A stretch of DNA of 59,524 nucleotides from positions 1 to 59,524 of the forward strand of contig JAGOLR010000006.1 of the NCBI GenBank assembly GCA_017993955.1. The letters run 5' to 3'. The DNA is from Candidatus Omnitrophota bacterium. GTDB lineage: Bacteria > Omnitrophota > Gorgyraeia > 2-01-FULL-45-10. Both the position numbers and the translations under genes were made by a program. Shown one piece after another: positions 2,934-28,654 of the stretch. The notes under the pieces are model-generated. The model did no database searches. It was given only the letters and a program-made list of their open reading frames with translations, and had not been told where the DNA came from. Each line of letters starts with the position of its first letter. The stretch's first letter is position 1.

Positions 2934-2952
2934 CCTATTACAGGAAACCTCG

Positions 2953-4146: not shown

Positions 4147-4160
4147 ATGGCTTAAATAAC

Positions 4161-6621: not shown

Positions 6622-6623
6622 AT

Positions 6624-9423: not shown

Positions 9424-10538
9424 AAGAACAAGTAAAGGTATTATTTATAATATGGTCGCTTGAAAAGGGTGGGGCCGAGAGATTTTTGACAACCCTTCTT
9501 AAAAATATCGATAAAACTAGAATAGCGCCGGTTGTCTGTTGTCTTAACTGGAAAGGTGTATGGGCGAGGGAAGTCGAGGATGCCGGGGTAGAGGTAATAG
9601 AATTGAACAAAAGAGGTAAATTCGATCTTATCGCATTTCTAAAGTTAATAAAAATTATAAAGAATGGAAAATTCGATATAGTAAATACGCATCTCTGGGC
9701 TGCTGATGTTATTGGCAGGATGGCTGCTATGTTTGTAGGCACGAAGGTTATTGTAAGCACGGCGCAAAATGTGGATATATGGAAAAAGAGTTGGCACAAA
9801 AACGTGGACAAGCTGTTATCGTATCGGACCAACCAGGTAATCGCCGTATCAGGGGCAGTGAAAGAATATTATCATAATCAGGTCGGTATCCCGCTAAAGA
9901 AAATATCCTATATTCCTAATGCCATTGAAACCGAAAGGTTCGAGGATACTAAAAGCGGGGAATATATTTATAAAGAGTCGGGCTTCAGTGCGAATGATTT
10001 TATTCTTGCATGTGTTGGACGGCTGACAGAACAAAAAGGCCAGAAATACCTTTTAGCAAGTCTTAGTCTATTAAAGCCGCGATATCCTAATATCAAGATA
10101 CTTTTTGTAGGGTATGGCGAAGATGAGAAGAAGCTGAAAGAGTTGGCGAATAAGTTGGGGGTTCAAGATTCAGTAAGGTTTATGGGATACAGAAATGATA
10201 TACCTCAGATACTAAGTATTTCTAGCGGATTGGTTTTACCGTCTTTGTATGAAGGTTTGCCTCTATGTGTGCTGGAGGCAATGGCTGCAGGGAAGCCGGT
10301 TATAGCAACAGACGCCGGCGGGACTAAAGAAGTAATCGTTAATGATAAGACCGGCTTTCTGGTTCCGTACGAAAATTCGGAAAAGTTATCCGCCGCGATA
10401 GAGAAGCTATTTAATTTGCCCGATCAAGGCAAAAAAATGGGAGAAAAAGCCAGGGAAGTAGTTAATGTGGATTATTCCATAAGATCAGTCGCGGACCAAA
10501 CAGCCGAGTTGTTTTGCAATCTGGTAAGCAAAACATGA
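9420..10538 (+). CDS. Glycosyltransferase family 4
   Basis: EGLPLCVLEAMAAGKPVIATDAGGTKEVIVNDKTGFLV; ATGA start/stop overlap with upstream gene. Confidence 0.85.
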   Translation: MKEQVKVLFIIWSLEKGGAERFLTTLLKNIDKTRIAPVVCCLNWKGVWAREVEDAGVEVIELNKRGKFDLIAFLKLIKIIKNGKFDIVNTHLWAADVIGRMAAMFVGTKVIVSTAQNVDIWKKSWHKNVDKLLSYRTNQVIAVSGAVKEYYHNQVGIPLKKISYIPNAIETERFEDTKSGEYIYKESGFSANDFILACVGRLTEQKGQKYLLASLSLLKPRYPNIKILFVGYGEDEKKLKELANKLGVQDSVRFMGYRNDIPQILSISSGLVLPSLYEGLPLCVLEAMAAGKPVIATDAGGTKEVIVNDKTGFLVPYENSEKLSAAIEKLFNLPDQGKKMGEKAREVVNVDYSIRSVADQTAELFCNLVSKT

Positions 10539-13492
10539 TAAAAAATTTTATACTAGCGTTATTTATTATCTACTCCCCGTTTCAGCTTCGACTCCCGCAG
10601 TGGGATTTTGTTAATGTGGCCAATGTATTTTTGCTAGTATTATTTTTTATTTTTATTTTGCAAAGAAACCATATAAATGTAAAGACTGCAGTCGACCTTC
10701 CTTTGCTATTATTTATTTGCGTGTGGTTTTTTTCCTTCATCCATTCATTGTTGGCGCCTGGAAATGATATGTGGAGGGTGGCGATAGCGATAGAATTTAA
10801 GAGGATATTCACGCTCGTATTTGCTTATTTTGTATTCGCGAAAAGTTTAAATACAAAAAAGGATGTTAATTTACTATTTGGAGTTTTTGTGTTTACGATT
10901 TTTCTGGTTGGGCTACACACCTGGAGGAATGGCACGCTGGAAGGCGTAAACTTTGCGGATTTTAAGAGATCTTCCGGTCCGTTTGCCGAAGATTTTAAGG
11001 GTAGCGATATCGCTGGAGGATTTTTAGCGACTTTCATCCCATTTCTTTTGACCTATTCCTTTTTTGAAAAAAGACTAGCGTGGCAAATCGCAGGTTTTGC
11101 CGGGACAGGGATTTCTTTGTTTGGCCTTCTCGCTACTTACTCCAGAGGCTCTATGATAGCTTTGGGGGCATCGTTCATTTTAATAATTTTATTCAGTCTT
11201 AGGCGTCTTTCGAGGGTCTCACATATTACCAAGATCGCTATTATAATCATTGCGCTGGGAGGATCGCTAGGATGGAAGATGTGGGTTCCTCAGACAATCG
11301 TCAATAGAATAGACGGCACTGTACAGGAAGGCTCTTATGACCAGACAAGGTTCGATGAAAGCTCGGAAAAAAGGATGGCGATCTGGGCTTCCGGCATAGA
11401 AGTGTTTAAAGAAAATCCAATATTCGGAGCCGGATTCAAACAGGTTCAGCACAAACTTGGAGTTGATACGCACAATTCTTTTATTCTTATCATGGCAGAG
11501 ATGGGGTTAGTAGGTTTTTTAATATTTTTATGGCTTTTATTTGCAATATTTAAAGAGGCGGTGGGATTATTTAAAACGCAAAATATTGCTATTGGGATGG
11601 GTTTTATCGGGTGTCTTTCAGGGTTCGTATTGGTAAATATGTTTTACTCTAATTTCTTTCGCGATACCGTATCGGGAAGCTTCTGGGCGATTTTAGGCAT
11701 TATGGTTGCGGCAAAAAAAGTTTCGGCGCAAAGTGAAGATGCTATAGAAGCAACTTATGCTAAAAAGAGAAAGGGTTTAATTAAAAAACGTTTGGGCGCT
11801 ACTACTGCTTTATTATTAATCTTGTACAATTCAAATTTTGTTTTCGCTGAAAATGTAAGCCGATGGTGGGATGAAAAAGAAGTCCAAACGCTAAATGTTA
11901 TAAAAGATTTAAAGCAAGGGGCCGGGAATGTGTTGTATGTTGATGGGGAAAATGGGGATGACCGCAATGGGGGAGGTTCATTAAAAAATTCATTTAAAAC
12001 TATTCAAAATGCTCTGGAACGCCTGGGCCCTGGTGATACCCTGGCTATTAGCGCTGGTGTATATCATGAAAAATTGTTAATACAGCGTAGCGGTCACGAA
12101 GATAATAGGATCCTTATCGGCCCTCGTGGGAATGGAGAAGTTGTTATTGACGGATCGAAAAAGATGGGGCTATGGGAGTTGCATGAGGACGGAATCTATA
12201 AAACAGAATGCCTCTTTAAACCTGCTGCGGTTGTAGTTAATGAAAAACCTTTTTACCCGGAATTCTCTCTTGCCACATTGCGCGAGGGTAGGTGGTATTA
12301 CGATGCAACAATTAAAGCGCTTTATATTTGCTCGATTGACGGAGACGATCCATCGCATCATAATATCGGTGTTGTTTCTGATGATCAGTATCAAGACGGC
12401 ATATTGCTTAACGGCGCTAGCAATATAACGTTGTATGGGTTGACAGTCAGGTATGCGGGCGGCAGGGGCGTGTCGATCTTGGGTCATAATAATTGCATCG
12501 AGAAGTGCAATATCAAATTTAACGGTGGCATTGGAATAAGTATGTTTAATTACAAAGAAACTATTACCGACAATACACAGATAATCAGGAATCATTCATA
12601 CCACAATTTCTTAAGGAATTGGCCTCGAGGCAGATATAAGTGGGGTAGTTGGGGGGCTGGCGCAGGAAGTCAGGGTGCCTCAAATACCCAGTATATCGGT
12701 AATGTGGTCCATAAAAACGGTGGCGAAGGATTGCTGGCGTATGGTGGTAAAGGTGGAACGATCTATCGCGATAATATCGTTTATGATAATTGGAGTGTGA
12801 ATATCTATATCGATAATCAGGCAAATGGGGTGATCGATAAAAATTTAGTTTATTGCACCGAACCAGACCCTAAAGATTTATACAATAACGGTGATGAAAA
12901 CCCGCGCGATGGTAAGAATCTCAGGCGGTTGAGAGCGGAAGGAATAATGACTGCTGATGAAAAGTATAAGCTAAATCCACCTGCTAACTTGCAGAATGTA
13001 AATATTTCAAATAATGTGATTATCGGATGTCGGCGTGGAATAACTCATTATGCCCAGGCGCAGGGTTCTGGATTAAAAAACATTTCAATAAACAATAATA
13101 CCATTATACTACCGAATTCTAAGGGTAATGGTGAAGAGTATATAGGTATAAGAATTCCGTATAATGATGGAAATAATGCAGATGTGTATATAAAAGATAA
13201 TGTAATATATGGTTCCAATCCCAGCACTTATTTATTGTCGCTTGATACAGGTTTCCCCGGAAATGATGTGCCTATGCGCGGGTTAACTTTTGACCGCAAT
13301 ACCTGGTATCACATGAGTAATCCCAAGCCTTTCCATGTTGGTCTAAGTGATCTTAGCTTTGACTCATGGGTTAATAATCCGAAGTATATGAAGCATTGCG
13401 TGAACAATCTGTATCAGGAGCCAAAGTTTGTCAAGGGGCAGGATTATTCCGACATTATTGCTCAACTGATAAGAGATTTCAAAAATGAATAA
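10535..13492 (+). CDS. O-antigen ligase/polymerase-like (Wzy_C) membrane domain fused to a C-terminal right-handed parallel beta-helix domain
   Basis: N-terminal ~400 aa multi-pass with TYSRGSMIAL and HNSFILIMAEMGLVG (Wzy_C-type loop); C-terminal ~550 aa has DUF1565-like GENGDDRNGGGSLKNSFKTIQNAL...GDTLAISAGVYHE and beta-helix repeats (NIVYDNWSVNIYIDN, ISNNVIIGC); ATGA overlap gives start 10535. Confidence 0.75.
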   Translation: MIKNFILALFIIYSPFQLRLPQWDFVNVANVFLLVLFFIFILQRNHINVKTAVDLPLLLFICVWFFSFIHSLLAPGNDMWRVAIAIEFKRIFTLVFAYFVFAKSLNTKKDVNLLFGVFVFTIFLVGLHTWRNGTLEGVNFADFKRSSGPFAEDFKGSDIAGGFLATFIPFLLTYSFFEKRLAWQIAGFAGTGISLFGLLATYSRGSMIALGASFILIILFSLRRLSRVSHITKIAIIIIALGGSLGWKMWVPQTIVNRIDGTVQEGSYDQTRFDESSEKRMAIWASGIEVFKENPIFGAGFKQVQHKLGVDTHNSFILIMAEMGLVGFLIFLWLLFAIFKEAVGLFKTQNIAIGMGFIGCLSGFVLVNMFYSNFFRDTVSGSFWAILGIMVAAKKVSAQSEDAIEATYAKKRKGLIKKRLGATTALLLILYNSNFVFAENVSRWWDEKEVQTLNVIKDLKQGAGNVLYVDGENGDDRNGGGSLKNSFKTIQNALERLGPGDTLAISAGVYHEKLLIQRSGHEDNRILIGPRGNGEVVIDGSKKMGLWELHEDGIYKTECLFKPAAVVVNEKPFYPEFSLATLREGRWYYDATIKALYICSIDGDDPSHHNIGVVSDDQYQDGILLNGASNITLYGLTVRYAGGRGVSILGHNNCIEKCNIKFNGGIGISMFNYKETITDNTQIIRNHSYHNFLRNWPRGRYKWGSWGAGAGSQGASNTQYIGNVVHKNGGEGLLAYGGKGGTIYRDNIVYDNWSVNIYIDNQANGVIDKNLVYCTEPDPKDLYNNGDENPRDGKNLRRLRAEGIMTADEKYKLNPPANLQNVNISNNVIIGCRRGITHYAQAQGSGLKNISINNNTIILPNSKGNGEEYIGIRIPYNDGNNADVYIKDNVIYGSNPSTYLLSLDTGFPGNDVPMRGLTFDRNTWYHMSNPKPFHVGLSDLSFDSWVNNPKYMKHCVNNLYQEPKFVKGQDYSDIIAQLIRDFKNE

Positions 13493-14168
13493 AATCTTAG
13501 CATATCATTCCATAGGATCTCCGCTTGCCGGCGAAGTCGGGTCGGAGTTGTATTGTATACCGGTCGAAAACTTCCGTGCCCAGATGGAATATTTACGCAA
13601 TACGCAATACACAATACACAATACACAAATAACATTCGATGACGGTGACATAACGAACTATACCCATGCTTTTCCGGTTCTAAAGGAGCTTGGTCTGACG
13701 GCATATTTCTTCATCATTGGCGGGCGGATCGGTTCGCCAGGATATATGAATTGGGAGCAGATAAAAGAGCTGCGCGACGCCGGTATGACCATCGGATCTC
13801 ATGGCATCACGCATAGGATACTTACAGGATTAACGGATAGCGAGATAGATTACGAGCTGCGTGAATCAAAAAGAATCCTGGAAGAAAATTTGAATACCAC
13901 TATAGAGCACCTTTCAATACCGCGTGGTTTTTATGACGAACGTATAATACAGAAAGCTGACGAGATAGGTTATAAAACCATTTTTACATCGAAGGAGAGG
14001 GTGGCAGTAAAGGCGGATTGGGACATGGATAAGTTTGAAAGAATGCTATTCGCCAAGCCATCGCTGGATGATAAGGTCATGGATTTTATAAAGGAATCAT
14101 CGAAAAGAATACTCGGGCCTAAAAATTACGACATATTAAGAACTAAAATCTTAACGCGGGGCCTATGA
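13485..14168 (+). CDS. Polysaccharide deacetylase (CE4 / NodB-homology domain)
   Basis: ITFDDGDITNY and GSHGITH motifs of the NodB fold. Confidence 0.8.
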   Translation: MNKILAYHSIGSPLAGEVGSELYCIPVENFRAQMEYLRNTQYTIHNTQITFDDGDITNYTHAFPVLKELGLTAYFFIIGGRIGSPGYMNWEQIKELRDAGMTIGSHGITHRILTGLTDSEIDYELRESKRILEENLNTTIEHLSIPRGFYDERIIQKADEIGYKTIFTSKERVAVKADWDMDKFERMLFAKPSLDDKVMDFIKESSKRILGPKNYDILRTKILTRGL

Positions 14169-15307
14169 TATATATATTCTGGATATCTTTTATGGCGTTA
14201 TTTTATACATATTTCGGTTATCCTCTATATCAGTATTTAAGATCCGGTATATCCAGAAGAGACGCAGCGAAGGATGTGAATTATAAACCTAAGGTTTCAA
14301 TAGTTTTCTCTGCATATAACGAAGAGGATTACGTCTTAGATAAAATAGAAAATCTCCTTAAGTCGGATTACCCAGGAGATAGGCTGGAGATATTGGCATG
14401 TTCGGATGGCTCTACTGATTCTACCGGTAATCTGCTTTCGGGCATAAAAGATAATAGGGTAAAAGCATTTGTTTTTGAGAAAAGACGCGGGAAGCCCAGT
14501 GTTTTGAATGACATAGTTCCTCTGGCCGACGGCGAGATAGTAGTGCTATGCGATGTCCGTCAAAAATTCGATAAAGATGCCGTATCGCAGCTTGTTTCGA
14601 ATTTTGCAGATAACAGGATAGGGTGCGTAAGTGGAGAGCTGATATTTATTGATGCCGGGTCGGAAAGAGGCATATCCGATGGCATAGGGTTATACTGGGA
14701 GTATGAGAAATTCATCCGCCGGTGCGAAAGCAATATTCATTCCATGGTGGGGGCGACAGGCGCTATATATGCTATAAGAAAATATCTATATGTTGATTTG
14801 CCAGCGGATGTCATATTGGATGACGTTTATATCCCTCTTTCGATTGTTCGTAAAGGATACCGGTCGATATTCGATCCATCAGCAAAAGCATATGACAGGC
14901 CTGCTACGACCCCTGCAGGTGAATACCGAAGAAAGGTCCGGACGCTTGCGGGTAATTATCAGATATTCAGGTTTTTCCCCGGGCTATTTATACCATTAAA
15001 AAACCATATGGCATTGGCGTTATTTTCGCATAAGTTCCTAAGATTGTTAGCACCGTTTTCCATGATAATGATGTTCTTGAGCAATCTATTTATGGCGAAA
15101 GAAAGTTTTTATGGTTCAACGCTTGTGTGTCAGGTGATATTTTATATATTGGCGATATTGGGAAGCATGACTTACAGAGATGCTGATAAAAGATTGTTTG
15201 TTCGGATAGCTAGCACTGCCTATGCATTTTGCCTGATGAATTTTACAGCTATAATAGGTTTATACAGGTACTTATTCGGTAAACAGAAGGTGGCCTGGGA
15301 GAAATAG
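14165..15307 (+). CDS. Membrane-bound glycosyltransferase family 2
   Basis: N-terminal TM, VSIVFSAYNEE, CSDGSTDST (DxD-type), C-terminal hydrophobic segments; ATGA overlap with deacetylase gene. Confidence 0.8.
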   Translation: MIYIFWISFMALFYTYFGYPLYQYLRSGISRRDAAKDVNYKPKVSIVFSAYNEEDYVLDKIENLLKSDYPGDRLEILACSDGSTDSTGNLLSGIKDNRVKAFVFEKRRGKPSVLNDIVPLADGEIVVLCDVRQKFDKDAVSQLVSNFADNRIGCVSGELIFIDAGSERGISDGIGLYWEYEKFIRRCESNIHSMVGATGAIYAIRKYLYVDLPADVILDDVYIPLSIVRKGYRSIFDPSAKAYDRPATTPAGEYRRKVRTLAGNYQIFRFFPGLFIPLKNHMALALFSHKFLRLLAPFSMIMMFLSNLFMAKESFYGSTLVCQVIFYILAILGSMTYRDADKRLFVRIASTAYAFCLMNFTAIIGLYRYLFGKQKVAWEK

Positions 15308-15310
15308 AAG

Positions 15311-16144
15311 ATGACTACTACTGCAAAGAATGCGTTTATTAGGTTCGGGGTGGCTTTTTTCTTGCTAATGGTGGCATACATACCTACGATTAAGTGGATG
15401 GTGGACAGATGGAATGCCTCCGACGGTTATTATGGACACGGGTTTTTGATACCTATCGTATCTGCCTTTATAATATGGCAGAGAAGGGCGGTACTGCAAA
15501 AGATAAATTTTACAACCAGCGTCTTGGGTATCTGGATCACGGCATCGGCGCTATTGGTAAATATTGTATGCGCCGCGCTAAAGATATATTTTATTTCCGG
15601 CTTTTCGCTTGTCTTTGCTTTATACGGTCTTATCCTGTTCTTTTTTGGGCGCGAGATGGTGAAGAATCTGCTATTCCCCGTATTTTTCTTATTGGCGATG
15701 GTGCCCCTGCCCTTGGTAGTAGTTGGGAACCTTACCGTAAAGATGAAGCTTTTTGCCGCTCAGTGTTCGACGTTTGTGCTTAATAAGATAGGTTTTCCTT
15801 CTATTCTTGACGGTAGCACTATACGCATGCCGAAATCTTTTATAGCAGTTGAGGCGCCTTGTAGCGGGCTTCGTTCGCTTATAGCACTTTTGACCTTAGG
15901 GTTACTTTTTGCCTATGCTCTCAAAACGTCGAAAATTAAAAAAGGGGTACTTCTGGCTTCCTCCGTACCGATAGCTATGGCTTCGAATGTGATGAGGATA
16001 GTGATGCTCGCAGTCGTAAATGATCTGTACGGTGGAAAGGTGGCCATGGGTTTCTTTCATGATATGTCAGGGTTCCTGGTATTTGGCTTTGCATTTGCCG
16101 CGTTGCTGGCGGTCAGTAAAGTCCTGGAAGGTGGCAGGAGATGA
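15311..16144 (+). CDS. Exosortase (EpsH/Xrt family transpeptidase)
   Basis: 277 aa polytopic; GHGFLIP block, catalytic-type Cys in VEAPCSGLRSL, Arg in SNVMRIVML and His in FFHDMSG, the conserved exosortase triad context. Confidence 0.85.
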   Translation: MTTTAKNAFIRFGVAFFLLMVAYIPTIKWMVDRWNASDGYYGHGFLIPIVSAFIIWQRRAVLQKINFTTSVLGIWITASALLVNIVCAALKIYFISGFSLVFALYGLILFFFGREMVKNLLFPVFFLLAMVPLPLVVVGNLTVKMKLFAAQCSTFVLNKIGFPSILDGSTIRMPKSFIAVEAPCSGLRSLIALLTLGLLFAYALKTSKIKKGVLLASSVPIAMASNVMRIVMLAVVNDLYGGKVAMGFFHDMSGFLVFGFAFAALLAVSKVLEGGRR

Positions 16145-16812
16145 TATCTAAAAACACTGCTCAATTTATAGCCTTAGTCGTAATACTGGTAGTTGCATGC
16201 GTGTTATCTCTCCAGCTCTTTTTCCGCGAGCGGACGATGCATGACGTAGTTGATATACGTAAATTCCCCATAAAACTTGGGGTGTGGACCGGGAAAGACC
16301 GCGTCCTGACCGAGAAAGAGTACGACATTTTGGAGACTCGTAACCTGTTTACACGCGAATATTCCGACCGTTCGGGGCGCGAAATATTTTTGTTCATAAT
16401 ATATTCTGAGACTAACCGCTCAGTTTTTCATCCGCCCGAAGTATGCATGCTCGGGAGCGGGTTTAACATTGTAAATAAAGAGCGTGCGGAAATCGTCTCC
16501 CCGTCACGTAAATTTTATGTAAATAAACTGAATACACAGAAGAGCAATTTTAAAGAGCTGGTACTTTATATGTATAAAGCCGGCGAGCTCTACACGGATA
16601 ATTTTTATCTGCAGCAGGCATATCTCGCCTTGCATCAAGTCCTGGGCAGGCGCGTCCCGGGAGCTACCATACGCGTGTCTATGCCGATAATGGGCGATGA
16701 AAAGAAGACCCTTACTACTCTTCAGCAGTTTTTGGGGGATGTAGTCAAGGCCGTCGACCAGATGACAACTTTGAAGGATCGGCAGAACGCGAAAAATACC
16801 AAAGCCAAATAA
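16141..16812 (+). CDS. epsI: EpsI-family exosortase-associated protein (stand-alone)
   Basis: N-terminal TM anchor, FHPPEVCMLGSG motif characteristic of EpsI; ATGA overlap with exosortase gene. Confidence 0.75.
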   Translation: MISKNTAQFIALVVILVVACVLSLQLFFRERTMHDVVDIRKFPIKLGVWTGKDRVLTEKEYDILETRNLFTREYSDRSGREIFLFIIYSETNRSVFHPPEVCMLGSGFNIVNKERAEIVSPSRKFYVNKLNTQKSNFKELVLYMYKAGELYTDNFYLQQAYLALHQVLGRRVPGATIRVSMPIMGDEKKTLTTLQQFLGDVVKAVDQMTTLKDRQNAKNTKAK

Positions 16813-16963: not shown

Positions 16964-16986
16964 TTGTGCTATGGGCTATGGGCTAA
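16964..16986. repeat. 7-nt-period array (GTGCTAT GGGCTAT GGGCTAA), single arm
   Basis: Near-identical to the reverse complement of 21394-21420. Confidence 0.55.
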
Positions 16987-17011
16987 AAAAATCAAAAAAA
17001 ATGGGGGCGGT

Positions 17012-17575
17012 ATGAAAGAGATGGTTTTGCAGGGGGTGATTGAGAATAAGATTTACTTGATCCGCGGGCAAAAGGTTATGCTGAGTACGCACCTGGCTGT
17101 ACTTTATGCGGTGGAGGCAAGGGCGCTAATCCAGGCAGTAAAAAGGAACTTCGAAAGATTTCCGAAAGATTTTGTATTCCAATTAACAGACAATGAGTAT
17201 CAGGGCTTGAAGTCACAGATTGTGATTTCAAGTTGGGGCGGTATAAGACGCGCAAATCCCTATGCGTTTACCGAGCAGGGAGTGGCTATGCTTTCGAGTG
17301 TTCTTAAAAGCAGGCGCGCCATCCAGGTTAATATAGCAATAATGCGCGCGTTTGTTAAGCTCAGGAGGGAATTAGCCACCAATAAAGAACTCGCTTCGAA
17401 ATTACGCGAACTTGAAAATAAAGTATCGAAACACGATGAGGAGATTATTGCTATTTTTGAAGCGATACGACAGCTTATGGCGCCTCCGCCTGTGGCTCCG
17501 AAGAGAAGGATAGGTTTTCGTCAGGAGAATGGCGTAGAAAAATCCCAAATCCAAATAGTACCAAATCCCAAATAA
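17012..17575 (+). CDS. ORF6N-domain (KilA-N-related) DNA-binding protein
   Basis: IYLIRGQKVMLSTHLAVLYAVEARALIQAVKRNFERFPKDFVFQLT matches the ORF6N domain; C-terminal coiled region; last residues and stop are encoded by repeat R2; start at MKEMV chosen over the upstream non-ATG start in the ORF track. Confidence 0.7.
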   Translation: MKEMVLQGVIENKIYLIRGQKVMLSTHLAVLYAVEARALIQAVKRNFERFPKDFVFQLTDNEYQGLKSQIVISSWGGIRRANPYAFTEQGVAMLSSVLKSRRAIQVNIAIMRAFVKLRRELATNKELASKLRELENKVSKHDEEIIAIFEAIRQLMAPPPVAPKRRIGFRQENGVEKSQIQIVPNPK

Positions 17576-18218: not shown

Positions 18219-18234
18219 TGGCACACTTAATGCT
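18219..18234 (+). promoter_or_regulatory. Sigma-54 (-24/-12) promoter TGGCACacttaaTGCT
   Basis: GG and GC exactly one helical turn plus 2 apart as in consensus TGGCACG-N4-TTGCW; intergenic, 138 nt upstream of the sugar transferase ATG; sigma-54 activator encoded at 24519. Confidence 0.6.
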
Positions 18235-18247
18235 TTAAAGTTTGTAT

Positions 18248-18385
18248 ATGAAGAAAATTATTGATGCTTTTGGCCAGTTCATCGATGACTTAAAGAGCGA
18301 TATCGACGTCTATCTTACTATACGCAGGTACGCCAGAATAGATAAGAAGGAGAAGAGGTCTAAGATAGTTTATGCGAAAGATTAA
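18248..18385 (+). CDS. Possible 45-aa leader/small protein (MKKIIDAFGQFIDDLKSDIDVYLTIRRYARIDKKEKRSKIVYAKD)
   Basis: ATG ~3 nt after the predicted sigma-54 start site, overlaps the transferase start by 14 nt; no homology recognised. Confidence 0.25.
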   Translation: MKKIIDAFGQFIDDLKSDIDVYLTIRRYARIDKKEKRSKIVYAKD

Positions 18386-19148
18386 ATCAGGTTTTCAATA
18401 CATTTTTATAGCATCCTTCCTCGTAATATCCACGCTATTTCTGATAGGCTTATGTTATGCGCAGGCAGATACTCAATCTCCGCTTGTTGTGCCGGAGCCG
18501 AGTACTGTGGCGCTCATGTCCACAGGATTTATCGGTTGGATAATACGTTTTGCCAGAAGGCGTTTTCAGGAGTTTAAGCGTATCTTCGATGTGGTCTCTT
18601 CGGCTATCGGCATAGTAGCGGTTTCTCCGGTTATCGCGCTTACGGCGGTAGTTGTAAAGACCGTATCGCCGGGCCCGGTATTTTTCAGACAAGAGCGTGT
18701 AGGTTTAAACGGAAGACTCTTCGATATTTATAAGATAAGGACGATGCGTCTAGACGCCGAAAAAGCTACAGGACCGGTCTGGGCCCAGGAGAATGACCCG
18801 CGCCTTATAAAATTCGGAAAACTGATACGCAAGATGCACATAGATGAGCTGCCCCAGCTTTATAACGTACTTAAGGGTGAGATGAGCATAGTGGGGCCGA
18901 GACCCGAGAGACCTGTTTTCGTAAAAGAATTGAGTAACCAGATCGGCGATTATGCAAAAAGAATTCAGGTAAAACCGGGCATAACCGGTCTTGCCCAGGT
19001 ATGGCACAAGTATGATGAGACTCTCCAGGATGTAAGGAAGAAAGTGAAGTATGATCTCCTATATATAAGAGAGATGTGCCTTATGGTGGATATAAGAATA
19101 CTTATGAGGACAGTGCTTGTTTCGGCTCGAGGAAAGGGTGCAAGATAA
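18372..19148 (+). CDS. Polyprenyl-phosphate glycosyl-1-phosphate transferase (small bacterial sugar transferase, PglC/WbaP-C type) with N-terminal signal peptide + PEP-CTERM-like module
   Basis: KRIFDVVSSAIGIVAVSPV re-entrant helix, PGPVFFRQERVG, DELPQLYNVLKGEMSIVGPRPE; preceded by VPEPSTVALMSTGFIGWIIRFARRRF. Confidence 0.9.
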   Translation: MRKIKSGFQYIFIASFLVISTLFLIGLCYAQADTQSPLVVPEPSTVALMSTGFIGWIIRFARRRFQEFKRIFDVVSSAIGIVAVSPVIALTAVVVKTVSPGPVFFRQERVGLNGRLFDIYKIRTMRLDAEKATGPVWAQENDPRLIKFGKLIRKMHIDELPQLYNVLKGEMSIVGPRPERPVFVKELSNQIGDYAKRIQVKPGITGLAQVWHKYDETLQDVRKKVKYDLLYIREMCLMVDIRILMRTVLVSARGKGAR

Positions 19149-19170: not shown

Positions 19171-19860
19171 ATGAAGAATATGATATTAGCATTGGTTATT
19201 ACAATGATGGTTATTGCGGCATGCGCTTCGAATGCCTATGCAATACCCGCATTACAACTCTACATACCCGGATCAGAGTATATAGATGGAGAGGATCCAT
19301 ATACTTGGTCAAGCGAGAACTGGTATACCCCGGATTCCTCATTCAATATTCAAGTGATGGCAGTAGAAAAATTTTCCTCGGTAACATTGGTGGTGGCGGT
19401 TCCGGGTGGTCAAGAGGGGGGCGTTATTATAAATGGCTCTTCATACGCAAGCGGCCAATTTGGTTACGGTACCCCAGTGATGGGTATCGCAAAAAATGGT
19501 AAACCTGACTATATGCCTTCGCATTCTATATACGATACCTCATATCTACTATATAATCTCGGACCGATAACGGTGCTTGATACTCCAGTATACGATGAAG
19601 TTGCGAGGTATTATGGGGAAGAGGGCATTACGCCTAAGCCGGGGGCTGTTATAGAGCTCGATTTTTCCAAAACAAATTTCAGTATGGCCCATTTTGACGT
19701 TTTTGGGACTACTGAAGATGGCCAGATAAAATTTGCTCCTTTCGGCCACGATGCTGAAGACGGGCCTGTGCAGCATTCCCAGACGCCGGAGCCGGTTACG
19801 ATGGCGTTATTTGGTTTAGGCCTGGCGGGAGTGGCAGGGCTTAAAATAAAGAAGAGTTAA
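19171..19860 (+). CDS. PEP-CTERM sorting-domain protein 1
   Basis: Signal peptide MKNMILALVITMMVIAACASNAYA; C-terminus TPEPVTMALFGLGLAGVAGLKIKKS. Confidence 0.85.
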   Translation: MKNMILALVITMMVIAACASNAYAIPALQLYIPGSEYIDGEDPYTWSSENWYTPDSSFNIQVMAVEKFSSVTLVVAVPGGQEGGVIINGSSYASGQFGYGTPVMGIAKNGKPDYMPSHSIYDTSYLLYNLGPITVLDTPVYDEVARYYGEEGITPKPGAVIELDFSKTNFSMAHFDVFGTTEDGQIKFAPFGHDAEDGPVQHSQTPEPVTMALFGLGLAGVAGLKIKKS

Positions 19861-19904
19861 CGAGTTGACGGGTTAGCGGATTTTTATCAATGGAAGGGAT
19901 ATGT

Positions 19905-20645
19905 ATGAAGAAGACTATTGTGGCTGCGGTTATAATCTTAACGGCTGTCGCCTCGCCGGCTTTTGCAAGTTTCATCGGTACCGAGATAAGTTTGAACCAT
20001 CGCTATGGTCGATCAAGCGATATCAAGTCGGGCCAGCCGTATGAACTTTGGCGTGTTCTATCCGATATGGGGTATGCGGCTCTTGCCGATGATGTGAGAA
20101 GGGATGTACTTGGCCAGACCACATCTTCGGCTTATAGCGCTTATAAAAATGCCTTCTGGCAGACATGCAAATATAGCAATTATCTTACTATAGAGGTTTC
20201 GGCTTATTCGTCTGCCAGTAAATTTGGCTGGTACGAAAAAGGTTTTGCCGACGATGTGGGGGACATGTCTAAATCTACTTGGGCTACCGTGTTTACAGGT
20301 GTTGATGGGGCAGGCTCTACCGCGGTGTTTAAAAATAGAAACCAACTCGGGTTCTGGATAAACCCGAATGGCGTTGCGGGCAGGTATTATTTTACTGATG
20401 CCGCTTCGAATGGCGGTAATCTTCAAGCCGTTACATTTGAGCTTGGAGGATATCAGGGGTATGACCAGGATGATTATCTTGTATGCTTTGAGGACCTTAG
20501 ATATTCTTCATGCGATTGCGATAGAGATTTTCAGGATATGATAGTCAGAGTCCATACTTCAAGAGAATGTCCCGAACCTATCACCATGGCCCTATTTGGC
20601 TTGGGGGTGGTTGGCGTTGCTTTAAGTAGATATAGGAAACATTAA
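19905..20645 (+). CDS. PEP-CTERM sorting-domain protein 2 (DUF4114-like segment)
   Basis: Signal peptide MKKTIVAAVIILTAVASPAFA; DYLVCFEDL...DRDFQDMIVRV; C-terminus CPEPITMALFGLGVVGVALSRYRKH; start 19905 has GGAAGGG 6 nt upstream. Confidence 0.85.
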   Translation: MKKTIVAAVIILTAVASPAFASFIGTEISLNHRYGRSSDIKSGQPYELWRVLSDMGYAALADDVRRDVLGQTTSSAYSAYKNAFWQTCKYSNYLTIEVSAYSSASKFGWYEKGFADDVGDMSKSTWATVFTGVDGAGSTAVFKNRNQLGFWINPNGVAGRYYFTDAASNGGNLQAVTFELGGYQGYDQDDYLVCFEDLRYSSCDCDRDFQDMIVRVHTSRECPEPITMALFGLGVVGVALSRYRKH

Positions 20646-20681: not shown

Positions 20682-21356
20682 ATGAAAAAAATAGTTGTTG
20701 TAGCTGTTTTAATATTGATTTTTGGATTTGCCGGTTCAGCGTATGCGACCGTAACGCCAATATCATATCCGACCGGATATAGCGAGAAATGGCTCGATAG
20801 AGACAGGTGGCTTTCTACGTCTATAATAGGGACGCTATTCGGTTTAAATAATGTCACGAGGATAGATGACGATCTGGACCAGATATGGGCGGCCGGCGCT
20901 AACGCAAATGTCAGAGCCGTTGCTAAGTATGCCGGGGACGCTCAGCGTCTATACGCCGGAACTACCCATCTTTTGGATATAACAAGCGGCAATTTCTGTA
21001 GCCTGACAAGCGGCGCTACGGCAGGTTTCACCGCTTCCGGGGCTTTCAAATTTTACGATGACTCGGGTCCGGCTGGCGGGACGATCTGGAGCTCGTTGGT
21101 AAGCGAGAATTCGGACGGTCGTGACCATATGGTTACTTACAGGATAATCAATTCCGGTGGTACAAATTATTCCATTGGTGACTATGTCATAGCCTGGGAA
21201 GACGGGACCGACTGGGATTATAACGATATGGTGTTTGTGCTTCATGATGTGACCAATAATCCCGAGACTAGTCACGCTACTCCTGAGCCGGCCACGATGG
21301 CGCTTATGGGGCTGGGGTTGGCGGGGTTAGTGGCGCGTAAGAAAAAAAGAATTTAG
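20682..21356 (+). CDS. PEP-CTERM sorting-domain protein 3 (DUF4114-like segment)
   Basis: Signal peptide; YVIAWEDGTDWDYNDMVFVL; C-terminus TPEPATMALMGLGLAGLVARKKKRI. Confidence 0.85.
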   Translation: MKKIVVVAVLILIFGFAGSAYATVTPISYPTGYSEKWLDRDRWLSTSIIGTLFGLNNVTRIDDDLDQIWAAGANANVRAVAKYAGDAQRLYAGTTHLLDITSGNFCSLTSGATAGFTASGAFKFYDDSGPAGGTIWSSLVSENSDGRDHMVTYRIINSGGTNYSIGDYVIAWEDGTDWDYNDMVFVLHDVTNNPETSHATPEPATMALMGLGLAGLVARKKKRI

Positions 21357-21466: not shown

Positions 21467-22066
21467 ATGAGAAAAGCTTATTTAGTTCTGTTTGTTTTGC
21501 TGATGGCAGCAGCTATGCCTGTAATTAGCGCTGAGGCAGCAATACTGGCGGATGGGTATACGACTTATGCTGCCACTTCATTTGATGCTGTGGTGTATTG
21601 GAGGGTATATTCACCGTTAGATACTTCGTCACCGTTGGGTTCGATAAATGACTATAGTTATTTTTATCAAGTCCATAATGCTGGTACTGGGACTGATAGA
21701 TCAATAACTCAGCTTGGCGTTGATAATCCATTCCAGCTGACGATCACCACCGCGGGGTATCTGACAACGCTTAATCTGGACGGGTTATCAGGAACCGTGG
21801 CGCCTAACACTACTACATATGGCGGTGAGAATAGTGGTCTATGGACTTTCCAGACACCATCAATTGGTTTAGGGAAGGACAGCTATTTGCTGTATTTTAC
21901 ATCTCCATATGCTCCTAGTAAGGTTAACGGGGGCGTGCAGGCCGGATCTTATAACGCAGAAGGCCCTGTTCCGGGGCCGGTTCCGGAGCCAGCTAGTATG
22001 GCGTTGCTGAGTATTGGCTTAGCAGGATTCGCTGGTAAAGCACTAAGAAGGAAGTTCAGGTCATAG
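21467..22066 (+). CDS. PEP-CTERM sorting-domain protein 4
   Basis: Signal peptide MRKAYLVLFVLLMAAAMPVISAEA; C-terminus VPEPASMALLSIGLAGFAGKALRRKFRS; GGAGGTG SD. Confidence 0.85.
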   Translation: MRKAYLVLFVLLMAAAMPVISAEAAILADGYTTYAATSFDAVVYWRVYSPLDTSSPLGSINDYSYFYQVHNAGTGTDRSITQLGVDNPFQLTITTAGYLTTLNLDGLSGTVAPNTTTYGGENSGLWTFQTPSIGLGKDSYLLYFTSPYAPSKVNGGVQAGSYNAEGPVPGPVPEPASMALLSIGLAGFAGKALRRKFRS

Positions 22067-22317: not shown

Positions 22318-23196
22318 ATGAAATACAACATAACAAAAAATTGGACCCAGACCATAGATGCGCTTGCATCCAGGCCGGCTATACTACTGCCTTTCTTTTT
22401 TATAGCTTTCTTCGAAGCGCTCTCCCTGGAGATAATATATTTTTCTAGCAGGAAACCCATCCTTTTAGTCGCAGGTCCTATAGTACGAAAGTTTTTCGGC
22501 GAATCATTTCTGCATTATCCGGGCAATCTTATAATACTACCCAAACTTTTTTATTACGCGCAGACCGTGATATACATATTTATCGGCGTGTTTTTAATAT
22601 CCTGCTCGGTGCAGATATTTAAGAACACGAAGATGAATTTGCCCGTTATACCAAACGCGCTCATCAAAAACAGCGTTAAGCGTTATTTCGCGTTCTTCTC
22701 TTATGCGGTTTTGATAATAGTATTGATAACAGCAGCTCAATCTGCCCAATCCATAGTTTTTTCTAAGATATCCAACTTATCCCAGAAGTATTTGCCGATG
22801 ATACCGGCAGGAACTTTATCTATAACGATATCCTTATTATCGATAATCTCTCTTTTTATCACGACAGTCCTTATCTACACGTTTTTATTTATGGTCATAC
22901 CGATTATGGTTATTCAGGGTAAATCTCTGGTAAAAGCTCTTGGTCAAAGCATCGTTAATGGTTTTCGGCATTTTACCAGCCTTTTCTTTCTTATCTTTTT
23001 TCCGTTCCTGGTATATCTGCCGATTATAATGCTGAAAAGCTTCGCTCTTGTTATAGTAAATAAGACTTTTCCGGAGATCAATCTCTGCGTTATCATCGTC
23101 AGTATAGTATTATCGGCATTTGTAGATTGCTTTATAATAACTTCACTATCCCAATTTCTGCTGGACCATGAAAAGTTAGCGGCGGAAGCATCATGA
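22318..23196 (+). CDS. Polytopic membrane protein, unknown function
   Basis: 292 aa, ~7 hydrophobic segments; no recognised motif. Confidence 0.65.
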   Translation: MKYNITKNWTQTIDALASRPAILLPFFFIAFFEALSLEIIYFSSRKPILLVAGPIVRKFFGESFLHYPGNLIILPKLFYYAQTVIYIFIGVFLISCSVQIFKNTKMNLPVIPNALIKNSVKRYFAFFSYAVLIIVLITAAQSAQSIVFSKISNLSQKYLPMIPAGTLSITISLLSIISLFITTVLIYTFLFMVIPIMVIQGKSLVKALGQSIVNGFRHFTSLFFLIFFPFLVYLPIIMLKSFALVIVNKTFPEINLCVIIVSIVLSAFVDCFIITSLSQFLLDHEKLAAEAS

Positions 23197-24050
23197 AAAA
23201 GACAGTTTTTATACTAATAGCGATACTTATCGCGTTCCCGGTAGCTTTATCTTTTATGAGTTCCTCGTATGAATACGGGGCCGAAAGATTATTGTACAGG
23301 GCTGTCAAACTTAATGAGAAGATAGCGGTTAATCCTGACGTGGCGCCTCCGGTCATGGTGGCTAACGTAGAGAATACATTAAAGGATGTATTGAAGAAAT
23401 ATCCGGAAGCCGACGCTGCAAAAGCGGCCAATCTGGCCCTGGCGGAATTCTATGTGCAGAATAAAAAATATGAAGACGCTTTAAAGCTTATAGACTCCAT
23501 ATTGAGTTCTAAAAAGAGCAATAAAGGCATGCTGAGTTCTGCGCAGTTCATGAAGGGAGCTCTTTATGAGAAGCAGGGTAAGTGGGAAAGGGCACTCCAG
23601 GAATACATAAAACTTAGAGATAATTATAAAGATACCCCGATCGGTCTTCAGATACCTGTATATATAGCGCGCCATTACAGCGAAAAGGGCCAGGATGAAG
23701 CGAAGAAGGCTTATGAAGATGCCGCTAAGTACTATGAGAAGCTGGCGAATGAGTATAAGGGCAAGCCTCTCGGTTACGAAGCGACCAATATGATGATAAG
23801 CATATACTTCGGTTTAAAAGAGTATGATAAGGCGGGAGACGCTGTCGAAAAGGCTGTCGATATATACCCTTTACAACTTACATTATCCCGGTACGCTCCG
23901 TCGATGGAATTTGTCTTTGCCAAGCAGTTGAAAAGGCCTGAGCGCGTAATAAAATTTTATAACGCGGCGATGAAAAAGACCGAAGATCCGAAATTAAAGA
24001 AGGCCTTGCAGGATAGGATCGACGAGCTAAATAAAAAAGATAGCCAATAA
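23193..24050 (+). CDS. TPR-repeat protein with N-terminal signal/anchor
   Basis: MKKTVFILIAILIAFPVAL; TPR-like AEFYVQNKKYEDALKLID, GALYEKQGKWERALQEYIKL; ATGA overlap with upstream gene. Confidence 0.7.
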   Translation: MKKTVFILIAILIAFPVALSFMSSSYEYGAERLLYRAVKLNEKIAVNPDVAPPVMVANVENTLKDVLKKYPEADAAKAANLALAEFYVQNKKYEDALKLIDSILSSKKSNKGMLSSAQFMKGALYEKQGKWERALQEYIKLRDNYKDTPIGLQIPVYIARHYSEKGQDEAKKAYEDAAKYYEKLANEYKGKPLGYEATNMMISIYFGLKEYDKAGDAVEKAVDIYPLQLTLSRYAPSMEFVFAKQLKRPERVIKFYNAAMKKTEDPKLKKALQDRIDELNKKDSQ

Positions 24051-24093
24051 TTGTTAGTGTTAAAAATAGCTAGATTATTTTCTTGATTTGATT

Positions 24094-24429
24094 ATGGATA
24101 AAATGGTAAACTCAAAAAACGTTAAAAATATAAAACGATATCGAAGCCGTAAGGTTAGAGCGGACCGTTACAGAAGATTGATTTCTATGGGCGAGATATC
24201 GAAGGCAATCATAAGTGATCTGTCGGTCCCGCTCGATGCGACGAATAGATTTATAAATCTCGCGCTTCTTAGCGTGGGCGATGGATCACAAGGCAGACAG
24301 TTTTTACTGGATTCGAAGCAGGGTCTGAGAGAGACATCGCTTCTTTTAAAAAGATTGAACACTTACGCTAAGAAGATGGAGGAAGAGATCCGTAGTATCG
24401 TAGATTCTAGCGGCCGCAAGGTCGGATAG
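24094..24429 (+). CDS. Small stand-alone DHp (HisKA)-like protein lacking the phospho-acceptor His
   Basis: RRLISMGEISKAIISDLSVPLDATNRFINLAL aligns by eye to the HisKA block (L..G..A..IAHE..NPL..I.....L) with H replaced by S; no ATPase domain; start among 24088/24094/24103 uncertain. Confidence 0.5.
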   Translation: MDKMVNSKNVKNIKRYRSRKVRADRYRRLISMGEISKAIISDLSVPLDATNRFINLALLSVGDGSQGRQFLLDSKQGLRETSLLLKRLNTYAKKMEEEIRSIVDSSGRKVG

Positions 24430-24476: not shown

Positions 24477-24518
24477 ATCGTGGCCAATGCTAATAGTTTA
24501 CAATTTCGTCAGGGCGAA

Positions 24519-25904
24519 ATGATAAAAAACCGAATATTAGTTGTTGACGACGATCAATTAGTCCAGAAATCGCTTTATGAGATGCTGTGCCGCGCGGGTT
24601 ACGGCGTGGATATAGCGGATTCTATCAACAAAGCCCTGGACCACCTACATGAAAACTCCTACCAGGTAGTGCTCCTAGACTCAAATATCTCCGATACCAA
24701 ACAATTGACCAGGCTTCTCGACATGCCCTCGAGGCAATCGCGGGTGATATTGCTGGCATCCTACGGCGACGTGGATAATATAGTCAAGAATTTTAAGCCA
24801 AAGATATTCGATTATATAACGCGGCCCGTCGAGGATGAGAAGATACTGAAGATGATCGAGCGTTCTTTCGCCAGCAGACCTGTCGCTATATCCATGGACC
24901 TTTTGCGCGAGAAGGTCGATCTCTCGCCCGAAATATCATATAACGGGCTCGTAGGTATCAGTAAGGGGATGAGGGATATATATTCAGTAGTAAGCCGGGT
25001 GGCCCAATCAAAGGCCACCGTTCTTTTGCGCGGAGAGAGCGGCACCGGTAAGCGCATGATAGCCCATGCTATACATAAGGCCGACAAGATCCGGAAAGAC
25101 AGACCTTTTATAGAGATATCGTGCGGGGCTCTGCCGCGGGAGATAATAGAGAGTGAACTATTTGGCCACACCAAAGGATCCTTTACCGGCGCGACCAATG
25201 ATAGGAAAGGTCGCTTTGAGCTTGCTAACGGCGGCACGATACTTCTCGACGATATAGATACGATGCCTCTGGACCTGCAAGTCAAACTCCTCCGAGTGCT
25301 TCAGGAAAAAGAGTTCGAAAGAATAGGCGACCATAAGACGATAAAGGTCGATGTACGTATAATAGTGTCCACCAACCAAGACCTGGAAAAGCTGATAGCC
25401 GAGAAGAAGTTCAGGGAAGACCTGTACTACCGCGTGAATGTCATCTCTATAAATGTCCCGCCTTTGAGAAGTAGAAAAGACGACCTGAGATATCTTGTAG
25501 AGCACTTTGTTAGGATCTACGTAAAGGAGAATCATAAAAATATCCATTCGGTATCTCAGGACGCTTTTGAGGCCTTGGAGCAATACAATTGGCCCGGTAA
25601 TATAAGAGAGCTGGAAAATATCATCGAGCGGGCTGTTATTTTGGATACAGATAACATAATCGACTGCGACGACTTCCCGAGTCTCATAACTACCAGCGTG
25701 CCCTTGGATGAAAAAGCGGCGGCATCCAAAGATCTGTCAAGCGCAATGGCGGATTGCCTTAAAGATGCATTAAAGGAGCCGGAGAAGGTATATATACTGC
25801 GGATAATGGAAGAGACCGGATGGAATAAACGCAAGGCGGCCGAACGTCTTGGCATTAACCGCACGACGCTGTACAATAAATTAAAAAAACTTAACATACT
25901 CTAA
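24519..25904 (+). CDS. Sigma-54-dependent transcriptional activator (NtrC family: receiver + AAA+ + Fis-type HTH)
   Basis: ILVVDDD, VVLLD; Walker A GESGTGK, GAFTGA-type loop GSFTGA, ESELFGH, C-terminal RKAAERLGINRTTLYNKLKK. Confidence 0.9.
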   Translation: MIKNRILVVDDDQLVQKSLYEMLCRAGYGVDIADSINKALDHLHENSYQVVLLDSNISDTKQLTRLLDMPSRQSRVILLASYGDVDNIVKNFKPKIFDYITRPVEDEKILKMIERSFASRPVAISMDLLREKVDLSPEISYNGLVGISKGMRDIYSVVSRVAQSKATVLLRGESGTGKRMIAHAIHKADKIRKDRPFIEISCGALPREIIESELFGHTKGSFTGATNDRKGRFELANGGTILLDDIDTMPLDLQVKLLRVLQEKEFERIGDHKTIKVDVRIIVSTNQDLEKLIAEKKFREDLYYRVNVISINVPPLRSRKDDLRYLVEHFVRIYVKENHKNIHSVSQDAFEALEQYNWPGNIRELENIIERAVILDTDNIIDCDDFPSLITTSVPLDEKAAASKDLSSAMADCLKDALKEPEKVYILRIMEETGWNKRKAAERLGINRTTLYNKLKKLNIL

Positions 25905-25946: not shown

Positions 25947-26990
25947 ATGCTCAATAAACCCGTCGGACTCGGAGACCTGGTCGGTCTGGAGGATTGGCAA
26001 AAGGTACAAAACTATTTTGCCGAAGCTATCGACGTCACCCTCAATACCGTATCTTTAGAAGGAACCCCTTTAACAAAACCCAGCCGCCCAACGCGCCTTT
26101 GCAGCAGCAATTTCCCGAAAGACAGCAAGTGCAAGTCGCTCTGTGACTCCTGCGTAACCAAGAGACTAAATCCTTCGAATATCGCCGATATAAAGAAGAT
26201 GGCAAACTTCAAATGCCATCTAGCGGACCTCGATATGTTCGTCCTTCCGATAGAGGCCGTGGGCAGGCAGATAGTCGCGTATATCGTGCTGGGGCCCATG
26301 ATACTGAAGTCCAGGAAATCGATACCGGAATACATAGAGGAAGCGAAACCCCACGGCATCGGCGCGGACGACATAACCGATGCCCTGATCGAGATAAATG
26401 TATTCTCCTATAGTAAGATATATAATATAACAAATCTTATAACTACCATATTCTCCTATATGGCGCAGACCGGTTACCACAAGAAGCGTCTGGGCGAGAT
26501 AGCGCCCGAGATACTCGGCATGGACCCCGTATTCGCCAGATATCACGAAGAGAGGATATTGAACTCGCTTCTGAAATCCTGTCTCGTGGCGCTAAACGCC
26601 GATTCCGGTTCTGTCATGGTGCGTGACAACAGTACGAATCTACTCCATATCAAGGCCGCATCCAAAATAGACGATGATATCGTCGAGAAGACCGAGATAA
26701 AGGCCGGAGAAGGGATAGCGGGATTTGCCGCCGCCACCGCCCAGCCGATATTACTTCCGAAGGACGGAGAGAAAGGGAATCTGAAAAATAAGATGCGCAG
26801 GGGAGAGATCAAATCTTCTATGATAGTCCCCTTTGCTACGAGCGATGAGACTGACGTATACGGTGTTATAAACCTTAATATATTGCGCACAAATGCGGAT
26901 TTTTCGGAAAAAGACATATCTTTAGTAAAAGAGCTTATCAATCTTACCAAGACCGCATTAGCTTCTGTCCAAGTCTCCACTAAAATCTGA
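25947..26990 (+). CDS. PocR-like sensory domain + GAF domain protein (no output domain)
   Basis: N-terminal LEDWQKVQNYFAEAIDVTLNTVSLEGTPLTKPS...C..C pattern resembles PocR; C-terminal GSVMVRDNSTNLLHIKAA...GEGIAGFAAATAQPILL...VYGVINLN is GAF-like. Confidence 0.65.
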   Translation: MLNKPVGLGDLVGLEDWQKVQNYFAEAIDVTLNTVSLEGTPLTKPSRPTRLCSSNFPKDSKCKSLCDSCVTKRLNPSNIADIKKMANFKCHLADLDMFVLPIEAVGRQIVAYIVLGPMILKSRKSIPEYIEEAKPHGIGADDITDALIEINVFSYSKIYNITNLITTIFSYMAQTGYHKKRLGEIAPEILGMDPVFARYHEERILNSLLKSCLVALNADSGSVMVRDNSTNLLHIKAASKIDDDIVEKTEIKAGEGIAGFAAATAQPILLPKDGEKGNLKNKMRRGEIKSSMIVPFATSDETDVYGVINLNILRTNADFSEKDISLVKELINLTKTALASVQVSTKI

Positions 26991-28623: not shown

Positions 28624-28654
28624 ACGCTTGGCACTAGCTAAAGGAGCACATGTT

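Follow-up and report, generated by a model that had tools for sequence, protein, structure and literature searches.

Proteins of the PEP-CTERM/exosortase system (EpsH, XrtA-type; PMC1569441) carry a PEP motif, a hydrophobic helix of ~14-17 residues and a basic cluster together with a preceding signal-peptide-like segment, and the loci of this system contain an exosortase, EpsI, exopolysaccharide (EPS) genes, a sigma-54 regulator, a TPR protein and an upstream sigma-54 site. Since 2006 the link between exosortases and EPS has been based on gene neighbourhood and on phylogenetic profiles. Here we describe a 59,524-nucleotide stretch of DNA from a Candidatus Omnitrophota bacterium (contig JAGOLR010000006.1, called the window below; all features given lie on its + strand), in which a phosphoglycosyl transferase (PGT) of 258 amino acids (aa), encoded at 18372-19148, begins with such a PEP-CTERM module. 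The locus resembles the described system in all the genes and sites just listed, and the module resembles the described one in all its parts. Unlike there, however, the module of the window PGT is N-terminal, it is followed by an enzyme of 190 residues that is predicted to be cytoplasmic, its 'cargo' is only 10 residues long, and the window exosortase scores under the cut-off of the XrtA model TIGR03109 (177.6 versus 208 bits).

As an enzyme, the window PGT shares its catalytic core, the Ser-Pro re-entrant helix, the Asp-Glu dyad and the fold with the small monotopic PGTs of the PglC type (8g1n, 8e37). PglC, however, begins a few residues before KRIFD, whereas the window PGT adds a 66-residue N-terminal extension with two predicted membrane-spanning segments and a periplasmic loop. 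With TIGR03013 (EpsB_2, the XrtA/PEP-CTERM system-associated sugar transferase) it has in common that a PGT of the PF02397 family is genetically linked to an exosortase locus; unlike that family, it consists of a small-PGT core and two extra helices, and it scored 266.2 bits against a cut-off of 393.35, matching only positions 252-443 of the ~443 positions in the model. The members of TIGR03013 are, to our knowledge, large PGTs in which no sorting signal is embedded. The model for EPS polyprenyl glycosylphosphotransferases (TIGR03025) was likewise matched only in its C-terminal half, with 288.5 versus 295.55 bits. The published classification of monotopic PGTs distinguishes small, large and bifunctional enzymes (Bi-PGTs) and holds no sorting-signal class (PMC10312794). 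Like the Bi-PGTs, the window PGT has its core fused at the N-terminus to another functional module, but the Bi-PGT class is defined by functional domains, whereas a protein-sorting signal is what is fused here, accompanied in some relatives by a surface-protein domain. We found no mention of a PEP-CTERM-PGT fusion among the Bi-PGTs, no prior description of a PEP-CTERM module on a PGT in the open-access full texts searched, and no model for this architecture in NCBIfam, which is consistent with an earlier note on this DNA whose author was not aware of the architecture having been described.

A PEP-CTERM-type module ahead of a PglC-like core

The open reading frame (ORF) of the PGT was assigned from its translation, from hidden Markov models (HMMs) and from its homologues. 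Residues 1-30 (18372-18461) form a predicted signal peptide or signal-anchor, in which a positive n-region (MRKIK), a hydrophobic helix of ~21 residues and CYA with a conserved -3/-1 site follow one another. They are succeeded by a putative periplasmic linker or 'mini-cargo' of near-fixed length, QADTQSPLVV (residues 31-40, 18462-18491), and by the PEP-CTERM module PEPSTVALMSTGFIGWIIRFARRRF (residues 41-65, 18492-18566), with its PEP motif, transmembrane (TM) helix and Arg cluster, for which two HMMs and column conservation speak. The monotopic core (residues 69-258, 18576-19145), identified by PF02397, invariant columns and Foldseek, contains KRIFD, the re-entrant helix with S85-P86, the D158-E159 dyad and PRPE at 176-179. 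The PEP-CTERM model PF07589 gave 24.4 bits with the whole protein and 30.5 bits with residues 1-70 (gathering cut-off 20.7), TIGR02595 gave 20.4 and 22.4 bits, respectively (cut-off 16), and PF02397 (Bac_transf) gave 218.9 bits over residues 69-250. Read in order, the module is PEP, STVALMSTGFIGWII and RFARRRF, matching the definition by a near-invariant PEP motif, a hydrophobic helix of ~14 residues and a basic cluster; it is a PEP-CTERM-type module in a new position, which conforms to the definition in sequence but not in place.

The four proteins encoded directly downstream, referred to as cargo proteins, gave scores similar to those of the PGT on the same models (15.3-27.1 bits with TIGR02595, 24.9-34.7 bits with PF07589), and a basic cluster preceded by PEP-x4-L-x3-G-x2-G is common to their tails and to the PGT module. 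Scanned in all six frames for PEP and an adjoining hydrophobic stretch, the 59.5-kb window yielded five occurrences, the C-termini of these four proteins and the N-terminus of the PGT, which is also the sole Bac_transf protein in the window. Thus the ORF, its translation and the motifs quoted in the earlier note are all present as described there, the three-part layout that it saw shared with the four downstream C-termini was recovered with the same HMMs and the same pattern, and the HMM check that it called for gave scores above the cut-off with both models. Its reading of a signal-peptide-like start also stood, but the AQA end did not: the conserved site is (C/S)-Y-A followed by Q, E or D, and with cleavage predicted after A30 the linker, put at 8 residues in the note, becomes one of 10. 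A lipoprotein signal at 'LCYAQ' was considered as well and rejected, since the cysteine is not invariant (C in 56 homologues, S in 31, also V, G or A) and the residues before it are unlike a lipobox.

In the core, the columns of the D158-E159 dyad, of P86 in the re-entrant helix and of PRPE show no variation. An AlphaFold (AF2) model of the PGT, with a pLDDT of 74 that falls to 50-59 over residues 31-50, was relied on only for assigning the core fold; it has a helix over residues 2-28 and shows the linker as coil. In Foldseek, the model found PglC (8g1n and 8e37, E about 2e-11, best 2.3e-11, 38-39% identity) and WbaP (8t53, 3.8e-8). From these columns and this fold the catalytic core looks competent. 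Positive charges are placed in MRKIK ahead of helix 1 and at R59, R62-64, K69 and R70 past helix 2, and the loop between the helices has none. Because of this charge distribution, with which the PglC-like fold agrees, we infer an N-in, loop-out, C-in topology, which would put PEP at the periplasmic face and the core in the cytoplasm, where PglC-type enzymes work. The same geometry was proposed for exosortase substrates in the model of Haft et al. 2006 (PMC1569441).

Conservation of the module and its linkage to the exosortase

Conservation was assessed in the best 120 homologues from a protein search (63-100% identity), 117 of which were scorable for column counts. Most of them are 258 aa long, those that are named come from Candidatus Omnitrophota, and the source databases call them merely 'sugar transferase'. 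All 117 have the P and E of the PEP motif, and 113/117 also its second P; glycine is found at +11 in 111/117 and at +14 in 110/117, and the RFAR(R/K)RF cluster is near-invariant. Judged from these columns, the module is under strong purifying selection. The signal-peptidase-like site is conserved as well, with alanine at -1 in 117/117 and C, S, V, G or A at -3 in ~110, and of the ~104 homologues in which the linker from Ala(-1) to PEP could be scored, 95 have exactly 10 residues there.

The earlier note had raised the possibility that translation starts at an internal Met (Met49), in which case the upstream 'module' would be non-coding and would owe its appearance to chance or to an annotation artefact. 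Two of the 120 homologues (P0011 and P0012) are indeed 210-aa gene calls that begin at this Met, and the closest Shine-Dalgarno-like sequence lies at 13-20 nucleotides (nt) from the ATG at 18372. However, the remaining 118 carry the full N-terminal module, the HMM scores exceed the cut-offs, and Met49 is not conserved, the homologues having mostly I, V or L at that position. Moreover, over codons 1-48 the differences from two homologous genes at codon positions 1/2/3 numbered 16/7/29 and 22/11/38; with divergence thus dominated by third positions, the region upstream of Met49 is therefore coding and the PEP motif is made. Translational coupling is also available to the start at 18372 via an overlapping small ORF (see below). 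An internal start is excluded by these results, and we regard the artefact as refuted, with virtually no probability left to it.

Related loci were collected by a scan for the junction motif AR[RK]RFx[EQ]FKR in one genome from each GTDB species, a selection that is independent of the exosortase. The scan gave 31 loci, nearly all labelled Omnitrophota (loci and database proteins are designated below by L and P numbers), and in 31/31 a signal-peptide-like segment, PEP, a helix, RFARRRF and KRxFD are encoded in that order. Twenty-eight of the loci extend for 3 kb or more upstream of the PGT; all 28 have an exosortase gene upstream of it, with EpsI detected alongside in 27. Gene order is conserved and runs deacetylase, GT2, exosortase, EpsI, PGT, PEP-CTERM proteins, a 290-aa membrane protein, a TPR protein, a small protein, a sigma-54 regulator and PocR/GAF. 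The extension, whose absence from orthologues had been named in the earlier note as telling against its reading, is thus present in essentially all of them, and the exosortase adjoins the PGT wherever the flank suffices. In the window the exosortase (EpsH family, 277 aa) is encoded at 15311-16144, 2.2 kb upstream of the PGT and hence in agreement with the ~2 kb noted before; it scored 209.3 bits with PF09721 and 156.6 bits with TIGR02602 (cut-off 105.55). The exosortase-associated protein EpsI follows at 16141-16812 (TIGR02914, 84.7 bits, cut-off 42.8; PF11984, 118.5 bits).

The exosortase and the priming enzyme

We cautiously favour the reading that the PGT is the priming enzyme of a Wzx/Wzy-type EPS locus and that its PEP-CTERM anchor is recognised by the exosortase, by which the enzyme would be recruited and probably clipped. 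Helix 1 would insert N-in/C-out, and signal peptidase may cut after A30; the short linker and the PEP motif would then stand at the periplasmic face, the PEP-CTERM helix would cross back to the cytoplasm, and the Arg cluster RFARRRF would be joined directly to KRIFD, with which the cytoplasmic PglC-like core begins. The exosortase encoded 2.2 kb upstream would recognise the helix and PEP in the same way as the four cargo tails, and this recognition would recruit the priming PGT and probably end in a cut at PEP, so that polysaccharide initiation and the sorting of PEP-CTERM proteins would take place at one site and under the same sigma-54 control. The earlier note had proposed much the same: the topology that it assumed fits the charges and the PglC-like fold, while the docking of the enzyme in the exosortase, or its clipping, is a step that we, too, infer. 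That step gains in strength from relatives with full cargo, from a variant that lacks a signal peptide and from the flavour of the module in one locus (L034), all three of which are sequence comparisons.

The range of related architectures was surveyed with a profile of the N-terminal 76 residues of the PGT, which gave 100 matches among 1.84 billion representative proteins; in 31 of the 100 the PGT domain comes straight after the PEP module. The segment ahead of PEP is ~10 residues long in the clade of the window and 30-60 residues in sister Omnitrophota clades, where it bears a conserved '...RGRAPEPS' or 'QKSRAPEPST', and some relatives have whole surface-protein domains of 180-265 residues before PEP. 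Thus P0137 consists of a signal peptide, a choice-of-anchor N domain (NF038141, 53.8 bits), a PEP-CTERM module (26.4 bits) and the PGT; its locus shows the synteny of the window, and its surface domain belongs to the same family as cargo protein 1 of the window. P0192-like fusions of 470-513 aa form ~20 clusters, and their cargo domain also occurs as a stand-alone protein with an ordinary C-terminal PEP-CTERM (P0244-P0248), while P0203, from an Elusimicrobiota genome, has a different N-terminal region of 183 residues. Such full-cargo domains would reach the surface only if processed, and cleavage at PEP would therefore be needed for their release. At the opposite extreme, L040 has an in-frame stop 18 codons upstream and a likely start at MLAM-PEP, which makes a signal peptide impossible, and L042 has at most ~20 in-frame residues before PEP, without a hydrophobic segment, its protein scoring 20.2 bits on the Pfam PEP-CTERM model (cut-off 20.7). 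Since these variants with next to no cargo retain the PEP-TM-basic module, the module appears to matter to the enzyme itself, beyond any cargo.

Cleavage at PEP could also serve as a switch, if the PGT precursor were inactive or mislocalised and the cut by the exosortase activated (or inactivated) it, so that EPS synthesis would be gated by the sorting machine. The evidence for exosortase recognition speaks equally for this possibility, the constant length of the 10-residue linker and the conservation of the signal-peptidase-like site point to a defined route of N-terminal processing, and PGTs have already been described as control points, regulated by phosphorylation, by a response regulator and by uridine monophosphate (UMP) (PMC10312794, PMC12802240). 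However, the periplasmic stub would be far from the cytoplasmic active site, and an allosteric effect from the loss of 10 residues is hard to picture; the variants with few residues before PEP leave almost nothing to remove; and the length of the cargo varies from ~3 to 265 residues while the core stays unchanged. We consider such a switch rather improbable.

Outside the window, among the matches of the same profile, we also came across ORFs of 500-2500 aa that each string together 2-10 units, a unit comprising a domain, PEP, a helix, RRRR and a signal-peptide-like segment. No description of these 'PEP-CTERM polyproteins' was found (P0125, P0131, P0134, P0135, P0148-P0150 and ~30 others; several are from Planctomycetales metagenome-assembled genomes, e.g. 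NCBI MCA9247495.1). Their existence means that internal PEP-CTERM modules with protein downstream are not unique to the PGT. PEP-CTERM modules are not confined to C-termini, and annotation that demands a C-terminal position will miss those that lie elsewhere.

The following observations weigh against recognition of the PGT by the exosortase. The module, at residues 41-65 of 258, is followed by 193 residues and so does not occupy the extreme C-terminus. Several PGT subfamilies score slightly under the Pfam PEP-CTERM cut-off (16.9-20.2 versus 20.7 bits), which is why only ~12 of the 120 closest homologues bear a PF07589 label in precomputed annotation, and the same model gave no match with the protein of L040. 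The first hydrophobic stretch spans ~21 residues in the PGT, compared with ~13-15 in the signal peptide of each of the four cargo proteins next to it; judged by this length, helix 1 is unusually long for a cleaved signal peptide and could be an uncleaved signal-anchor. No exosortase was found within the DNA fetched for L036, L037 and L039, which have longer cargo or belong to other lineages. The PGT module of the 258-aa clade has a flavour of its own (S-T-G, Trp at +15, RFARRRF) as against G-L-G-L-x-G in the cargo tails, and the difference may stem from constraints that have nothing to do with the exosortase. Within a locus, the PGT module co-varies only weakly with the cargo modules (p = 0.037 in a permutation test on 22 loci, 0.24 without L034). 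Finally, the cleavage of PEP-CTERM by exosortases is itself still largely a model.

The signal in the co-variation test is driven by L034, and we set the test aside as unusable evidence for the 258-aa clade. In L034 itself the PGT module reads IPEPGTLLLFGTGLLGMIGSFARKRF and hardly differs from the two cargo tails of that locus (IPEPGSMLLFGTGLIGLIGIGRRRFF), although the three cargo domains are unrelated; a species-specific flavour has been described for genuine PEP-CTERM domains (Haft et al. 2006, PMC1569441). P0185, a variant with a degenerate PEP, was considered as a natural test of exosortase loss, and proved uninformative with a contig of only 3.6 kb.

The distinct flavour of the module in this clade, the weak co-variation within loci and the loci without an exosortase nearby, within the DNA fetched, are what would be expected of a relic anchor, that is, of a PEP-CTERM gene that was fused or recombined into the PGT gene and now provides an ordinary N-out/C-in TM anchor without exosortase contact. 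Small PGTs need no extra helices, and any helix might serve such an end. An inert anchor, however, leaves unexplained why P-E-P is conserved at the periplasmic boundary, with P-E in every scorable homologue, why a signal peptide with a -3/-1 site is kept merely to expose 10 residues, and why the exosortase is adjacent in 28/28 loci; moreover, the full-cargo variants require processing if their cargo is to be useful. We hold a relic anchor to be unlikely.

Going further than recruitment and clipping, the exosortase might hold the PGT by its PEP-CTERM helix as a metabolon, in which the undecaprenyl-diphosphate-linked sugar or glycan would be the acceptor for acyl-bound cargo proteins. If so, PEP-CTERM proteins would be covalently attached to the exopolysaccharide or to its lipid carrier, and the second substrate of the exosortase would be explained, but we rate this extension as speculative and its probability as small. 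Hundreds of sequences combine the sorting signal and the enzyme that opens the polysaccharide pathway in one polypeptide, and a domain fusion of this type predicts a physical or functional interaction. At the level of sequence, it is evidence for a physical connection between the initiation of sugar chains and the sorting of proteins, and it turns the 20-year-old genomic association of exosortases with exopolysaccharide into a specific, testable physical link. For experiments it offers a simple handle, since the enzyme is small and membrane-bound, its activity can be assayed and the motif to be mutated is defined, and it extends the catalogue of PGT architectures by a new accessory type.

Operon, small ORF and neighbouring genes

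The earlier note had overlooked a conserved ORF of 45 aa at 18248-18385, beginning MKKIIDAFGQFIDDLKSDIDVYLTIRRYARIDKKEKRS, which overlaps the start of the PGT gene at 18372 by 14 nt in another frame. An HMM of its family located it directly upstream of the PGT in ~10 loci (e.g. L001 9880-9996, L007 9809-9946); the members have 38-60 aa, the motif KKDIDVYLxIxRYxRxxR and no hydrophobic segment, and in L003, L008, L011 and ~8 of the 120 homologues the small ORF is fused in frame to the N-terminus of the PGT. Pfam and NCBIfam gave no match with it. Its product might be a small cytoplasmic protein that partners the PGT, or the ORF might serve for coupling or as a leader. Further upstream, at 18219-18234, a sigma-54-type -24/-12 promoter-like element, TGGCAC-N5-ATGCT, is the single exact match to TGGCAYNNNNNWTGCW in the window (0.12 expected). 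The motif occurs in single copy 130-475 nt upstream of the PEP codon of the PGT in ~20 related loci, and in another subclade it lies upstream of the exosortase; sigma-54 promoter sites have been reported ahead of PEP-CTERM genes. The PGT gene and the four PEP-CTERM genes are separated by gaps of only 22-110 nt and, to judge from this spacing and the promoter-like element, they probably constitute one sigma-54-dependent operon.

Of the cargo proteins, the first (19171-19860) has a choice-of-anchor N domain (NF038141, 96.9 bits; PF07589, 24.9 bits) and the second (19890-20645) a DUF4114 domain (PF13448, 35.7 bits; PF07589, 27.6 bits), whereas the third (20682-21356; PF07589, 34.7 bits; TIGR02595, 27.1 bits) and the fourth (21467-22066; PF07589, 28.9 bits) were recognised by their PEP-CTERM modules. 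The ORF of the second begins MEGICMKK..., and its signal peptide starts at the second Met (MKKTIVAAV, nt 19905), the probable true start. They are followed by genes assigned by phmmer synteny, for a 292-aa polytopic membrane protein (22318-23196), a 285-aa TPR protein (23193-24050) and a 113-aa protein (24088-24429); the first two come after the PGT/cargo block in most related loci and the third comes next in most. NCBIfam gave no match with the 292-aa and 113-aa proteins, which may be further parts of the exosortase system. Pairs of a membrane protein and a TPR protein of similar size also stand after the PGT fusions in L034, L036, L037 and L039, as judged in L034, L037 and L039 by length and Pfam only. 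A sigma-54-dependent response regulator, PrsR-like (24480-25904), and a PocR/GAF-type sensor protein (25947-26990) were assigned by synteny and by the Pfam labels of their L001 orthologues; the regulator scored 375.7 bits with TIGR02915, below the cut-off of 502.6.

Upstream of the exosortase, at 385-15307, are Wzx/Wzy-type EPS genes for an epimerase, a Wzx flippase, a pyruvyl transferase, glycosyltransferases of the GT4 family, an acetyltransferase, a protein with Wzy_C and a beta-helix, a polysaccharide deacetylase and a GT2 glycosyltransferase, and the PGT gene lies inside a complete Wzx/Wzy-type polysaccharide cluster. The Wzy_C protein (992 aa, 10514-13492) is an unusual fusion of an N-terminal Wzy_C membrane domain (O-antigen ligase/polymerase-like) and a C-terminal right-handed beta-helix. 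The gap of ~1.5 kb between EpsI and the PGT contains an ORF at 16964-17575 that is homologous by phmmer to two ORF6N (PF10543) genes of L001 (8396-9494). In L001 these two genes and a 23S-rRNA-IVP gene lie between EpsI and the PGT, and in L034 an IVP gene lies between the exosortase and EpsI; the gap looks like a variable insertion spot within an otherwise fixed gene order. Further downstream, an ORF of 1556 aa at 28628-33298, with a LapA-type retention module (NF033682, 52 bits) and adhesin-like repeats, probably encodes a large surface adhesin.

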